Assembly (NCBI GenBank): GCA_903835555.1
Contig: CAILNN010000420.1
Span: 4,990 to 68,989, forward strand
Direction of reading: 5' to 3'
From: an uncultured Verrucomicrobiota bacterium
GTDB lineage: Bacteria > Verrucomicrobiota > Verrucomicrobiia > Limisphaerales > UBA9464
Length of the DNA: 64,000 nucleotides
Position 1 is the first letter of the stretch; the number at the start of each line of letters is the position of its first letter. Under the pieces are notes generated by a model, which did no database searches, was not told where the DNA came from, and saw only the letters and a list, made by a program, of their open reading frames with translations. Of this stretch, positions 26,202 to 32,369 are shown one piece after another. Made by a program: the position numbers and the translations under genes.

Positions 26202-26732
26202 TTACTTGGTGGCCTGGGAATGGGCTTCCACAAACCAGAGCCATTTATCGATCCCGCGGGAAACCTCGGTGAAAATATCAGCGGTATCGGCGTCATTTAG
26301 TTCGGTGACCTCCAAAATGGTCTGGCGAGCGTCGTGACCGAAATCGGACAAAGCCTTGGAGACGGCCTCGACGTGGGCTGAGCCGTTGGCGATATCGAGG
26401 GGATACTCTTCAAGGCGGGAACGGGAGGCGGCTGTCCGTACCGTGCCTTCCGCGACGCCACCGAGTTGAACAATGCGTTCGGCGATAGTATCGACATAGG
26501 ACTCGACGCCTTCGGAGACCTTGTCAAAAAGCTCATGAAGGCCTATGAAATTGGGCCCTTTGACATTCCAATGCGCTTGTTTGAGCTGAAGCTGCAAATC
26601 CACACCGGAAGCGAGTCGTTGGTTCATCAGGTCCACTAACTCCTGACGACGATTGGCGGAGATATCGTTTTCCGTCTGATAGGTGATGGGCACTACGGGG
26701 ACGATGGGGCGTAGGGGAATGGTGGTGGTCAT
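26202..26732 (-). CDS. dps: Dps (DNA starvation/stationary-phase protection protein)
   Basis: LQLKQAHWNVKGPNFIGLHELFD ferroxidase-site region and a DTIAERI helix. Start set at the internal ATG (26732). Confidence 0.8.
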   Translation of the reverse strand: MTTTIPLRPIVPVVPITYQTENDISANRRQELVDLMNQRLASGVDLQLQLKQAHWNVKGPNFIGLHELFDKVSEGVESYVDTIAERIVQLGGVAEGTVRTAASRSRLEEYPLDIANGSAHVEAVSKALSDFGHDARQTILEVTELNDADTADIFTEVSRGIDKWLWFVEAHSQATK

Positions 26733-26782
26733 AGGCTGGGTAAGATTTTGTTCTGGCAGCATCGTGGAGGTCTGCCCAATTG

Positions 26783-26808
26783 CGCCATAGGGTGAACCCC
26801 TTATGGCG
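26783..26808 (-). promoter_or_regulatory. Palindrome carrying stress-motif copy, upstream of dps
   Basis: Minus strand reads CGCCATAAGGGGTTCACCCTATGGCG (10-bp stem with one bulge). It contains GGGGTTCACCCTATGG (26800-26785), 52 nt before the dps ATG. Confidence 0.4.
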
Positions 26809-26931
26809 TGACCGGTCGCTCCAAGGTCACTTTCCGGCTGTGAAAAATCGGACCGGTTGGACAAACCTCAAGAGGTGTAGTTGTCCCGCGCCAGCAAGGC
26901 GGGCGCATTGAATCTACGAGGCAAAACCAAG

Positions 26932-28851
26932 ATGTATCGGTGGGCACTTGCCACGGCGGCCCTGGCCATCCCTCTTTTGGGACAAGGCCCGCCAGAGAAT
27001 CAAATGGGCACCAATCCGGTTCCTGCGGAGCACATCATTTTGCCAGCGGAAGTACCTGATCCCATTGAACCGTTTAATCGGGTGATGTGGTCCTTCAACA
27101 AGGGGTTGATGATGGACGTTATCAATCCCACCGCACGTGCCTATCGATTCGTCATTGTGAAACCGATTCGGCGTGTGATCCGCAACTTCAATCGGAACCT
27201 CCTTTACCCGGGAAGAGCGATCAACAACCTGCTCCAAGCCAGATGGAGCGGTGCGCGGGACGAATCCTACCGCTTTCTAGTGAACACCACGCTGGGGGTG
27301 GGCGGCATCTTTGACATGGCCACCCCGTATAAAATCCCGAAGTCCGATGCTGATTTTGGCCAAACCTTTGGCTACTGGGGTTGGAAGCCGACCTGTTTCA
27401 TCATGCTGCCTGTGTTTGGCCCCAGCAGTGAACGAGACACCGTGGGATTGGTTGCCGATACCGCAGCCAATCCACTTCTGTACGTATCACCCTATTCATT
27501 CAACAAGAATAATCCGCTGACCTATTTGGGTGCATATAGCTATTTTAGCTATGGTGCCATGTACAACGGTCTCTCGGACTCCGTCGCGGAGTATGTCCGG
27601 TTTAGTGAATCGGAAATGGACCCGTATGCCGAGATACGATTGGCGTGGACTTTCGCGCACAAAAATCAGACGACAGATATGCGGGTGATGGGCAGTCAGG
27701 ATCAGCCATCGTTGGACACCGTGAGATCGGCGTTGTTTACCTACCAGGACCCCGAGTTTCCCGTCCACGCCCATACGCGCTCCGTTGTGATTCCAACGAC
27801 CGGTCGCAGGCTCCCCTTCTCTTATTGGCTACAACGCGGGAAGGCCCCATTGGTTTATGTCCTGCCCGGACTTGGCGGACACCGACTCTCCCAAACAGCG
27901 GTTGCGTTGGCTGAATTGCTTTATGGGAAAGGATACTCGGTCGTTTGTGTCAGTAATCCATTCCATTCCGAATTCATGGAACGTGCTTCCTCGGCCGTCC
28001 TTCCGGGTTACCTACCGGTCGACGCCCATGATGTACATGTGGCTTTGAACGAGATTGATCGCCGTTTGACGGAATTGTATCCGGGACGAATTGGGCCGAA
28101 AGCCTTGCTAGGCTACTCGATGGGAGCGCTGGAAGCCCTTTTCATTGCAGCGGAACCAGCCACCAATCACCCGTCCTTACTCCGGTTTGATCGGTTCGTG
28201 GCCATCAGCACACCGGTCAGCCTGATGCATGGAATAGCCAAGCTGGACGAATTCTATCTGGCACCGCTTGAGTGGCCTGCCGTGGAGCGCTCAAAGAATT
28301 TAGAAAACACCTATTTAAAGGTGGCGGCATTGGTGAAGGAAGGACTCAACCCTCAAACGAATCTGCCGTTTAACTCGATCGAATCCCGTTTTCTCATCGG
28401 AATGACCTTTCGATCGATTTTACGAGACATCGTTTATAGCAGTCAACGCAGGGCTCCCCAACATGTTCTACGGCACTCCCTTCTGAATCTCAGCCGCGAA
28501 GATATCTATCGGGAGATCAGTCGATATTCCTTTCAGGATTACTTCACCGACTTTGCCTCGCCTCTCTATGAAGGATCGGGGGAATTAAAACTGAATTCGG
28601 GTACCCTGGCACGTGCGGGTGACTTACGAACTTACGAGGTCGGCCTCCGAGCGAATTCAAATATTCGGGTCCTATCAAATCACAACGATTTCCTACTGGA
28701 CTATAACGATATTGCCTGGTTGCAAGCGACTTTTTCAAATGAACAATTAACCATTTTCCCCGATGGAGGCCACTTGGGAAATCTATTCGTTCCCGAAGTT
28801 CAAAAGGCCATATTGGGGGCTTTGCCAACGCTTTTGGATCCAAAACCCTAA
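26932..28851 (+). CDS. MlaA/VacJ-family domain fused to a C-terminal alpha/beta hydrolase domain
   Basis: N-terminal half has EPFNR..W.FN, NFNRNL.YP, LVNTTLGVGGIFD and FGQTFGYWG (MlaA). C-terminal half has LPGLGGH, a GYSMG nucleophile elbow and a DGGHLG histidine motif. Confidence 0.7.
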   Translation: MYRWALATAALAIPLLGQGPPENQMGTNPVPAEHIILPAEVPDPIEPFNRVMWSFNKGLMMDVINPTARAYRFVIVKPIRRVIRNFNRNLLYPGRAINNLLQARWSGARDESYRFLVNTTLGVGGIFDMATPYKIPKSDADFGQTFGYWGWKPTCFIMLPVFGPSSERDTVGLVADTAANPLLYVSPYSFNKNNPLTYLGAYSYFSYGAMYNGLSDSVAEYVRFSESEMDPYAEIRLAWTFAHKNQTTDMRVMGSQDQPSLDTVRSALFTYQDPEFPVHAHTRSVVIPTTGRRLPFSYWLQRGKAPLVYVLPGLGGHRLSQTAVALAELLYGKGYSVVCVSNPFHSEFMERASSAVLPGYLPVDAHDVHVALNEIDRRLTELYPGRIGPKALLGYSMGALEALFIAAEPATNHPSLLRFDRFVAISTPVSLMHGIAKLDEFYLAPLEWPAVERSKNLENTYLKVAALVKEGLNPQTNLPFNSIESRFLIGMTFRSILRDIVYSSQRRAPQHVLRHSLLNLSREDIYREISRYSFQDYFTDFASPLYEGSGELKLNSGTLARAGDLRTYEVGLRANSNIRVLSNHNDFLLDYNDIAWLQATFSNEQLTIFPDGGHLGNLFVPEVQKAILGALPTLLDPKP

Positions 28852-29730: not shown

Positions 29731-29794
29731 CACGGGCGGCGGGGTTCAGTCAGTGTGTTTTAGGAGAGACGGAACGGCGAATCATTGCCCGACC

Positions 29795-30493
29795 ATGAAG
29801 CCAAAAGAAATTCGCTTGGCAAAGCAATACGCATCGGCCATGCGACGATATTTGGTCCCTGGCAATCTGGAAGATTTGCAACCCGCCCTTCGTTTGGGAC
29901 GGGCGGCAGTCGCGATTGGCCTAGAGACGCTGGACTTGGCGCGGATTCATGAGGAGACGCTCTTAAGCCTTGGATTGGCAAACGGACCGTCGCCGACTGT
30001 AAAGCAAGCGGAACGGTTCTTTACTGAGGCCATCACGCCGATCATCGAGAGTCATCGAACATCACGAGCCAGAAAACTTCAGCTCAAAAGCCACAGCGAT
30101 ACGCTTCGAAAGCGAACAATCGAACTGGCGACCGCAAACCGCAACCTGAGGCGGGGTATCATTCGGCGCAAGAGCATGGAGGCGGCACTTAAGAAGACCG
30201 GGGAACACTACGCGAATCTCCTCAAGGAGTCGTTGCGATTGCAGGAGGTATTGCGCCGGCTGACGCGACAAGTTCTGGCGGCGCAGGAAGATGAACGAAA
30301 AAAGATCAGTGCTGAATTGCAGAATCAAATCGCGCAAACACTCCTTGGGATCAATATCCGGCTCTATTCGCTAAAGAAAGAGGCAAAATTGAACTTAAGC
30401 GATCTTAAGAGTGAAATCTCCAGCACCCAAAGGCTTGTGGCAAAATCAGCACGGACGGTGCAGCGAGTGGCCCGGGAGGTTGGGGAACAATGA
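29795..30493 (+). CDS. Histidine-kinase paralog lacking the phospho-acceptor His and the ATPase domain (RsbU_N-like + coiled coil + degenerate HisKA_3)
   Basis: Collinear with residues 1-235 of the next gene. The H-box reads ISAELQNQIAQTL where the neighbour has ISRELHDVIAQTL. The ORF ends right after DHp helix 2. Confidence 0.6.
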   Translation: MKPKEIRLAKQYASAMRRYLVPGNLEDLQPALRLGRAAVAIGLETLDLARIHEETLLSLGLANGPSPTVKQAERFFTEAITPIIESHRTSRARKLQLKSHSDTLRKRTIELATANRNLRRGIIRRKSMEAALKKTGEHYANLLKESLRLQEVLRRLTRQVLAAQEDERKKISAELQNQIAQTLLGINIRLYSLKKEAKLNLSDLKSEISSTQRLVAKSARTVQRVAREVGEQ

Positions 30494-31689
30494 AGGCGAA
30501 ACTTGACACCTTTCACCGCCGATATCAGGCCGCCCTTCTTCATCATCTCAAGTTCGGGACCGAAGTAAGTCTGGAGACGGCGCGAAGCCTCGGTAGCGAC
30601 GCGATTGCCGCCGGTCTGCAAACGCTGGATTTGGTCAAAATACATGAACAAATAGTAACTGAGGTAGTTATTCCGGGGTCTACCGCAGCTCGACGCCGGA
30701 CATTGATTAAAGAGGCTGGGGCTTTTTTCGCAATCGCCATCACCCAAATTGAAAAGACCCATCGCAGCGCCCGCGAAGCCACGGCACATCTTGAAAAGAT
30801 CATCGAATCCCTCAGCCAACGAACAGCCGAACTTGCTGCCTCCAACATGGATCTCAATTTGGAGGTGGCCCAGCGGAAGGCTGCCGAGGAAGCCCTCAGG
30901 GATAGTGAGCGGCACTATCGCCATTTACTGAAAAAGTCAGACCATCTTCAACAGGAGTTAAGGCGGCTTTCGCGTCAGATTCTCTCGGCGCAGGAAAATG
31001 AACGGAAGGAAATCAGCCGCGAATTGCACGACGTGATCGCACAAACGTTAACGGGAATCAGCCTTCGCCTGTCCGCGCTTGCCAAAGATGCGGCTCGGAA
31101 TACCAAGGGGCTCGACAACAACATTGCCCAAACTCAGGCGATGGTGGTCAAATCAGTGGCTATCGTCCATCAATTCGCGCGCGAACTGCGCCCGGCGGTT
31201 CTCGACGACCTGGGTTTGATTCCGGCCTTGCACACCTTTTTAAAGGCATTTTCAGACCGGACGGGAATCAAAGCGCACTTGACTGCATTTGCCGGAGTTG
31301 AAAACCTGTCTCCAAGTCGGCGTACCGTATTGTTTCGGGTTGCCCAGGAGGCCCTGACCAACGTTGGTCGCCATGCCCATGCCCATCGGGTGGATGTCAC
31401 GATCGAGAATCGAGCGGATGGCATCCTGTTACGGATTAAGGACGACGGAAGATCCTTCAAGGTTGATCAAGTTTTGAATAGCAGGAGCAACAAGCGTCTC
31501 GGACTTCTTGGTATGCGGGAACGGCTGGAGATGGTGGGCGGTCGACTTACTATCGAGTCGAGTCCGGGGGCTGGAACAACGATTCAAGCTTTGGTCCCGC
31601 GACCAACGACGGGGGCTCGAGAAGTTCGGGCAAAGATTCCGATCGAGAGGACCAATGATACTGGCGCGACTCACAGTTTATTATCATGA
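30490..31689 (+). CDS. Sensor histidine kinase (RsbU_N-like domain, HisKA_3, HATPase_c)
   Basis: H-box ENERKEISRELHDVIAQTL, N-box EALTNVGRHA, G-boxes DDGRSF and GLLGMRERLEMVGG. ATGA overlaps on both sides. Confidence 0.85.
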   Translation: MKAKLDTFHRRYQAALLHHLKFGTEVSLETARSLGSDAIAAGLQTLDLVKIHEQIVTEVVIPGSTAARRRTLIKEAGAFFAIAITQIEKTHRSAREATAHLEKIIESLSQRTAELAASNMDLNLEVAQRKAAEEALRDSERHYRHLLKKSDHLQQELRRLSRQILSAQENERKEISRELHDVIAQTLTGISLRLSALAKDAARNTKGLDNNIAQTQAMVVKSVAIVHQFARELRPAVLDDLGLIPALHTFLKAFSDRTGIKAHLTAFAGVENLSPSRRTVLFRVAQEALTNVGRHAHAHRVDVTIENRADGILLRIKDDGRSFKVDQVLNSRSNKRLGLLGMRERLEMVGGRLTIESSPGAGTTIQALVPRPTTGAREVRAKIPIERTNDTGATHSLLS

Positions 31690-32369
31690 TACCAATTACC
31701 ATTCTGTTGGCCGAAGACCACACCATCGTGCGGGAAGGATTCCGCAACATGCTCAATGCGGAAATCGATATTCGGGTGGTGGGTGAGGCATCCAACGGTC
31801 GCCAAGCAGTGGCGCTGGCGAAAGATTTGCAGCCCGACGTTGTGCTGATGGATATCGCGATGCCGGTCCTCAATGGGCTGGAAGCAACCCGCCAAATCGT
31901 CGGAGCAATTCCCAAAGCGAAAGTATTGATTTTATCGGCTCATCACGATGACGCCTACGTGGAGTCGGCCATCGAGGCGGGGGCCTTTGGATTTCTGATC
32001 AAACAGGCGTCAGGGGCTGACGTTTGCATCGCGATTCGCGAGGCTCACAAAGGGACCCATCTGATGAGTCCTCTGGTGGCGAAGCGAAACGCTGAACTAA
32101 ACCGTTCGGCACCGGACCGTCGCGGTACTTTCAAAGCTCGGCGGCACAATCTGTCGGTCCGCGAGATGGAAGTGATTCAACTCATTGCCGAAGGAAAGGC
32201 CAATAAGGAGACAGCTTCAGAACTGGGGATCAGCATTAAGACGGTTGAGAAGCACCGACAAAACCTGATGACCAAGCTCAATATACACGACACGGCCGGG
32301 TTGACCAGATACGCCATCGGGGCGGGAATTATTGAAAGTAACGTCCAACTCACGATTGTGCCGGAGTAA
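31686..32369 (+). CDS. NarL/FixJ-family response regulator (REC + LuxR-type HTH)
   Basis: ILLAEDH, DVVLMDIAMP, and C-terminal LSVREMEVIQLIAEGKANKETASELGISIKTVEKHR. Confidence 0.9.
   Translation: MIPITILLAEDHTIVREGFRNMLNAEIDIRVVGEASNGRQAVALAKDLQPDVVLMDIAMPVLNGLEATRQIVGAIPKAKVLILSAHHDDAYVESAIEAGAFGFLIKQASGADVCIAIREAHKGTHLMSPLVAKRNAELNRSAPDRRGTFKARRHNLSVREMEVIQLIAEGKANKETASELGISIKTVEKHRQNLMTKLNIHDTAGLTRYAIGAGIIESNVQLTIVPE

Follow-up and report, generated by a model that had tools for sequence, protein, structure and literature searches.

The gene at positions 26881–28851 (plus strand) of the window, by which we mean the whole 64,000-nucleotide stretch analysed here (contig CAILNN010000420.1 of assembly GCA_903835555.1, from an uncultured Verrucomicrobiota bacterium of the Limisphaerales), probably encodes a single-chain version of the MlaZ–MlaY outer-membrane lipid-asymmetry system, in which an MlaA-family domain is followed in the same reading frame by an alpha/beta hydrolase domain of the MlaY type. 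The pairing of MlaZ with MlaY and the existence of fused forms have been known since 2023, and the window gene adds a further member. What is new here is the MlaZ-then-MlaY (Z–Y) domain order, the linkage of stand-alone hydrolases to MlaA, the placement of Z–Y fusions and split Z-then-Y proteins in one clade, the loss of the lipobox in most of the window's clade, and the finding of neither MlaC nor PldA in the 43 genomes of a phylum-wide sample that carry the hydrolase.

A second, genetically required lipid-asymmetry pathway is known from Pseudomonas aeruginosa; it consists of MlaZ (PA3239), which resembles MlaA, and MlaY (PA3238), a lipoprotein of the alpha/beta-hydrolase kind (Guest, Lee, Wang and Silhavy, PNAS 2023, PMC10374164). 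The mlaY gene lies directly upstream of mlaZ, an E. coli strain mutated in both mlaC and pldA is rescued by the two proteins jointly, and a triad S187/D388/H415 has been proposed for MlaY, the H415A change abolishing function (PMC10374164). Lipid is proposed to be funnelled through MlaZ to MlaY and then degraded (PMC10374164). From InterPro it was also known that some MlaA homologues also contain an MlaY-homologous alpha/beta hydrolase domain; the example given, A0A3A4W9L3 from a member of the Desulfobacteraceae (hydrolase at residues 107–454, MlaA at 529–741), was used to argue for an interaction between MlaY and MlaZ (PMC10374164). Later work reports that cardiolipin loss depends on MlaY (PMC11977310) and that overexpression of mlaYZ affects the CtpA protease (PMC12569750). 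An earlier note, made from the letters of the window, had read the gene as encoding what would be an extract-and-hydrolyse device for lipid asymmetry. The published MlaYZ model, a conserved triad, a confident structural model, linkage to MlaA and the failure to find MlaC or PldA all support such a prediction, but the device is not new, having been published in 2023.

Like the Pseudomonas pair, the window protein combines an MlaA-family outer-membrane component with a predicted lipase of the Ser-Asp-His alpha/beta-hydrolase kind, with similar triad spacing (27 residues from Asp to His in MlaY, 28 here); the proposed flow, from outer leaflet through channel to lipase, is the same, MlaC would not be needed, and PldA was not found in the host. 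It differs in being one polypeptide rather than two lipoproteins from an mlaY–mlaZ operon, in running Z–Y rather than Y–Z, and in having no lipobox; moreover, a canonical MlaA–MlaC pathway alongside it was not found in its host, whereas one is present in P. aeruginosa. A0A3A4W9L3 likewise holds MlaA and an MlaY-like hydrolase in a single chain, but there the order is the reverse of that in the window protein, where MlaA comes first (residues 42–242) and the hydrolase second (281–630). The MlaA-then-hydrolase order was found in every fused protein whose order was checked.

The open reading frame is uninterrupted up to its stop codon (28849–28851), and many homologues share its architecture. A search of a large protein collection returned 1,572 full-length matches; the best 120 of these are 607–780 amino acids long and 59–83% identical to the window protein at 95–100% query coverage, and those bearing names are labelled Verrucomicrobia, Verrucomicrobiota or Limisphaerales, apart from one Dongiaceae label. 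A pattern scan of species genomes with alignment A1, which returns close relatives only, gave 211 confirmed loci; of the best 80, most are from Verrucomicrobiota (subdivision 3, Limisphaerales) by their record titles. The window's genome (5.34 Mb in 423 contigs, 92.8% complete) itself contains a second fused paralogue (contig C217:299–2446, locus L001), which is 71% identical and measures 715 amino acids when counted from the first start codon; an unfused MlaA was not found in this genome. That two genes were joined here by a sequencing or assembly error, a frameshift having been named beforehand as the finding that could undo the single-gene fusion, can thus be rejected as next to impossible, with nothing found in its favour: the same architecture recurs in the 1,572 database proteins, in the paralogue on C217, in 211 species genomes and, within the phylum sample, in 38 of 150 genomes, and the linker between the domains is conserved and confidently modelled.

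The N-terminal domain belongs to the MlaA family both by profile and by fold. The earlier note had placed MlaA hallmarks at residues ~40–220, in good agreement with the Pfam match to MlaA (VacJ; PF04333), which covers residues 42–242 (27055–27657, plus strand, as for all features of the gene given below) with E = 1.2e-53 and 182 bits against a cut-off of 25. In NCBIfam the MlaA match was sub-threshold only, and the C-terminal domain had no match. When the PDB was searched by sequence, three MlaA chains of known structure (5nuq, 5nuo, 8i8r) matched at E ~1e-16. We built an AlphaFold2 model from an alignment of 109 full-length, diverse homologues (31–82% identity to the window protein), and this has a mean predicted local distance difference test score (pLDDT) of 92.6 and a predicted template-modelling score of 0.92. 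Its MlaA domain is helical (residues 46–242) with pLDDT ~95 over the domain, and Foldseek aligned it with the MlaA chains 5nur_B and 5nuo_D (target-normalised TM-score 0.79, probability 1.00), the fold being that seen in OmpF/C–MlaA complexes. The linker that follows (residues 243–280, 27658–27771) carries a DPEFP motif, is conserved in alignment A1, and has pLDDT values, taken per 10 residues, of 84 (241–250) and 96–98 (251–280).

The C-terminal domain (residues 281–630, 27772–28821) is assigned to the MlaY type of alpha/beta hydrolase from Pfam, the model, Foldseek and BLASTP. Abhydrolase_1 in Pfam matches residues 306–444 just above threshold (32 bits against a cut-off of 25.8), and in the model the hydrolase core begins at residue 281, with an order of strands and helices that fits the fold. 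The three motifs that the earlier note had picked out in the C-terminal ~400 amino acids are all present at their places: a nucleophile elbow, GYSMG (28111–28125, Ser396 codon 28117–28119), then NHNDF (28678–28692, Asp586 codon 28687–28689) and DGGHLG (28762–28779, His614 codon 28771–28773). Across the 109 aligned homologues G394, S396 and G398 are invariant, while Asp586 is conserved in 108, the remaining sequence having a gap, and His614 also in 108, the exception having its His one column later through local misalignment. The VLPGLGGHR loop after the third strand (27859–27885), which is likely the oxyanion-hole region, is kept too (G313 and R318 in 109/109, G315 in 106/109, H317 in 105/109), and a helical cap, or lid, of eight helices is inserted at residues 431–575 (28222–28656) in the model. 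The PDB neighbours found by Foldseek for this part are monoacylglycerol lipases, lipases, esterases and thioesterases, including human ABHD6 and mycobacterial monoacylglycerol lipases, and the nearest folds also include polyketide-shortening enzymes; no solved MlaY-like structure was found in the PDB by sequence (a weak esterase match only, E 0.08) or by Foldseek. By its layout, then, with the GxSxG elbow, Asp and His conserved in canonical order, the domain is an intact serine lipase-type enzyme of predicted activity.

Hydrolases of this type are tightly linked to MlaA even where they are not fused to it. A HMMER scan with the C-terminal 375 residues returned 1,074 cluster representatives; among the best 150 of these, most full-length ones are fusions of 590–690 amino acids with MlaA in front, and the others are stand-alone secreted proteins of ~420–550 amino acids that contain the hydrolase domain only, their profile retaining the motifs GYSLGA, DDFLL and GGHLGNL. 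Three stand-alone homologues were looked up in their contigs, and all three adjoin an MlaA-family gene: for two, MlaA lies just upstream, 8 and 36 bp away, and in the third, from Desulfotalea psychrophila, the hydrolase gene is upstream of the MlaA gene and overlaps it, an arrangement as in mlaYZ. BLASTP aligned the D. psychrophila hydrolase with the window protein over 366 residues (25% identity, E 3e-27), and the motifs of all three triad residues are in register. Cluster look-ups of the stand-alone homologues turned up no Pseudomonas names. In the sample of 150 genomes across the phylum, the hydrolase was linked to MlaA in 43/43 carriers; the genetic linkage to an MlaA-family partner that marks the MlaY–MlaZ system is present in all of them, and takes the form of a fusion in the window gene. 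Seven stand-alone MlaY-like proteins (P0217, P0228, P0231, P0249, P0251, P0256 and P0267; 535–565 amino acids) have an extra C-terminal stretch of ~120–160 amino acids, which in P0228, P0231, P0251 and P0267 had no match in Pfam.

How these genes are distributed relative to other asymmetry routes agrees with a pathway that needs neither MlaC nor PldA. Among the 43 hydrolase carriers of the phylum sample, the MlaA frame continues downstream into the hydrolase in 38, and in five, all of one family, the hydrolase is the adjacent downstream gene; none has MlaC and none has PldA. MlaC was found in 23 of the 150 genomes, 22 of which lack the hydrolase and have a short MlaA adjoining MlaC, and PldA in one of these 23 (G084). 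In a sample of 60 further genomes from the order, each representing a different family, we found MlaC in a single genome and MlaA in 13, in 12 of which it lies in frames of 643–772 amino acids. A different MlaA fusion was seen at locus L098 (G093:C23), where MlaA occupies residues 496–638 of a 755-amino-acid partial frame that reaches the end of the locus (774 amino acids in the genome search); the frame has no MlaY-like hydrolase, and its genome has MlaC.

In the window's own genome, at its 92.8% completeness, MlaC (PF05494) and PldA (Pfam PLA1) were not found, and MlaD and MlaE are present. The earlier note had seen no mlaBCDEF genes nearby, and this holds: the genome's four MlaE and four MlaD-type loci lie on contigs C107, C358, C46, C323 and C217, and none is on the window's contig, C420. 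An outer membrane with lipopolysaccharide (LPS) is to be expected, since LpxC is present (G000:C108:6997–7803, minus strand). The LpxC frame, at 487 amino acids, is longer than the 268-position Pfam profile and is possibly a fusion. The MlaD frames at the MlaE/MlaD loci L003–L010 (C107, C358, C323, C46) are 327–380 amino acids long, compared with 81 positions for the Pfam MlaD domain, and an MlaD/MCE-type gene (C217:11250–11543, minus strand) lies ~9 kb from the fused paralogue on C217.

A maximum-likelihood tree of 43 MlaA-domain sequences, a small and unrooted sample from which P. aeruginosa MlaZ is missing, united all 23 fused Z–Y domains and the five MlaZ proteins of split Z-then-Y arrangements in one clade with 100/98 support. 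The other side of the tree holds 13 MlaC-linked canonical MlaA proteins, including that of E. coli, together with the only Y-then-Z MlaZ in the tree, that of D. psychrophila, on a long branch. The hydrolases likewise fall into two similarity classes, those of Z-then-Y operons being ~32–36% identical to the window protein and the Y-then-Z type ~25%. Tree and similarity classes together hint that the Z–Y and Y–Z forms may be separate lineages, a view that we hold loosely.

Lack of a lipid anchor is a further trait of the window's clade. The N-terminus (MYRWALATAALAIPLLGQG, 26932–26988) looks like a signal peptide, with a cleavage site that we infer, and the earlier note had observed that it lacks a lipobox Cys; this holds for the full protein, whose only cysteines are residues 155 and 339, so that the Cys that follows the signal peptide of MlaA-type lipoproteins is absent. 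Within the first 70 residues a lipobox-like motif was found in nine of 120 close homologues, some of these doubtful, but in 56 of 89 distant fused homologues. Because the motif is rare among the former and commoner among the latter, missing lipidation is a property of the clade rather than an error in the window gene, and the clade has mostly lost the lipobox. The anchor may be dispensable, since MlaA is itself embedded in the membrane.

These features suggest how the protein might work. The signal peptide would export it, and the N-terminal MlaA/MlaZ-type domain, lying in the inner leaflet of the outer membrane, would act as a channel drawing out phospholipids that have strayed into the LPS-containing outer leaflet. 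Each lipid would then pass to the covalently attached periplasmic hydrolase rather than to a periplasmic carrier, and the hydrolase, with its large helical cap and a putative Ser396–Asp586–His614 triad, may cleave the acyl chains. The lipid would thus be destroyed instead of returned, and in the window's bacterium this route probably replaces both MlaA–MlaC transport and PldA.

Set beside the E. coli systems, the window protein would share parts with one and a task with the other. Its N-terminal domain is homologous in sequence and fold to E. coli MlaA (VacJ), which works with MlaC and MlaFEDB; here, however, no MlaC was found, there is no lipid anchor, and a catalytic domain is attached, for which reason the fate of the lipid is probably degradation and not a return to the inner membrane. 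In E. coli PldA (OMPLA) the Ser-His-Asn site of a beta-barrel lies within the membrane. The window enzyme has an unrelated fold and is predicted to be an alpha/beta hydrolase in the periplasm that a channel supplies with lipid. What the two would have in common is the service of degrading outer-leaflet phospholipid, in which MlaYZ can replace PldA genetically (PMC10374164).

Other roles for the hydrolase domain have to be weighed against degradation. It could be an acyltransferase or lipid-remodelling enzyme that moves an acyl chain from the extracted phospholipid to another envelope lipid or a protein; alpha/beta hydrolases with a Ser-Asp-His triad do include acyltransferases, thioesterases and polyketide-shortening enzymes stand beside lipases among the nearest folds, and PagP carries out acyl transfer to an envelope lipid with a different fold. 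We consider this unlikely, given that neither an acceptor-binding feature nor a partner gene is conserved beside the fusion gene and that the published genetics fit degradation, MlaYZ substituting for the phospholipase PldA in E. coli (PMC10374164). Less likely again is a domain that serves mainly as a lipid-binding acceptor, a tethered stand-in for MlaC that feeds inner-membrane MlaD/MlaE-type systems, with catalysis secondary or absent. The four MlaE and four MlaD-type loci in a genome where no MlaC was found would suit such a role, and the large helical cap could hold acyl chains, but a domain tethered to an outer-membrane protein cannot travel back and forth through the periplasm, MlaY does not function without its His (PMC10374164), and the elbow, Asp and His are essentially invariant down to ~30% identity, which indicates selection for catalysis.

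It is also conceivable, though we judge it a touch more remote than the acceptor role, that the substrates are something other than mislocalised phospholipid, such as foreign lipids or detergent-like esters entering the outer leaflet, the task then being detoxification or nutrition under stress. A setting among stress genes (dps, DUF2934, an RsbU_N-type kinase and a NarL-type regulator) and the monoacylglycerol lipases among the nearest folds lean this way; set against them are the good conservation of the MlaA domain with canonical MlaA and the way in which, across the phylum sample, it strictly complements MlaC/MlaA, which points to the same housekeeping task. We therefore favour a single-chain MlaZ–MlaY system, while recognizing several points that tell against it. 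The probable homology to P. aeruginosa MlaY itself (PA3238) is drawn indirectly from the published statement about fusions (PMC10374164) and from the like operon in D. psychrophila; the lipid anchor found on both MlaA and MlaY of the model organisms is absent from the window protein; at 92.8% completeness the absence of MlaC and PldA from the window's genome is not proven; and the sampled genomes are related, so that their counts are not independent and the mutual exclusion with MlaC overstates independence.

Drawing the strands together, we put forward tentatively, as an idea with a real but less than even chance of holding in all its parts, that Z–Y fusions and split Z-then-Y operons form a lineage distinct from the Pseudomonas-type Y-then-Z arrangement, that they may be the sole outer-membrane asymmetry route in Verrucomicrobiota and relatives, mutually exclusive in our sample with MlaA–MlaC and PldA, and that in the window's clade the system would be unanchored, duplicated and perhaps wired to an RsbU_N kinase/NarL stress system. 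Genes for the degradative MlaZ–MlaY route, known genetically from one pathogen, are common in environmental diderms, and in many of these the route seems to occur by itself, with neither MlaC nor PldA. Carriers occur in several classes of Verrucomicrobiota among the sampled genomes and, going by the names of database homologues, in Planctomycetota, Myxococcota, Sumerlaeia and Lentisphaeria. The value of the present gene is modest, as both the architecture and its interpretation had been published before, but the single-chain form should be convenient for structural studies of the transfer of lipid between MlaA channel and lipase, a step that the Pseudomonas papers left open.

Two start codons are plausible for the gene. 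Translation from ATG 26932, the start annotated in the database copy of the protein (P0002), gives 639 amino acids, and translation from TTG 26881, which directly follows an in-frame stop, gives 656. A GAGG lies 5 nucleotides upstream of the TTG and a second one 11 nucleotides upstream of the ATG. In alignment A1 some close homologues (P0003, P0005, P0118) have a basic N-terminal extension like that of the TTG-start product, which makes the TTG start possible. The reading of the fusion protein is unaffected by the choice. A scan for promoters and terminators around the gene gave no signal above chance.

The fusion gene is divergent from dps, which encodes a ferritin-like protein, and on its 3′ side are a DUF2934 gene, a kinase-like paralogue, an RsbU_N/HisKA_3 kinase and a NarL-type regulator. 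Close homologues of the RsbU_N-type kinase and NarL-type regulator (29753–32369) occur within ~5 kb in ~20–25 of 80 related loci, usually upstream and in variable gene order (e.g. L019, L037, L044, L051, L060, L074, L076, L077); dps is nearby in nine of the 80 and DUF2934 in 14. No lipid-metabolism or mla gene was found among the conserved neighbours across these loci, and the surroundings of the MlaA–hydrolase gene look like a loosely conserved neighbourhood of stress genes. The dps open reading frame as called mechanically (26202–26864, minus strand) has a TTG start and 220 amino acids, but its ferritin-like domain fits a shorter protein from ~26735, and the real intergenic region between dps and the fusion gene is therefore ~150–200 bp.

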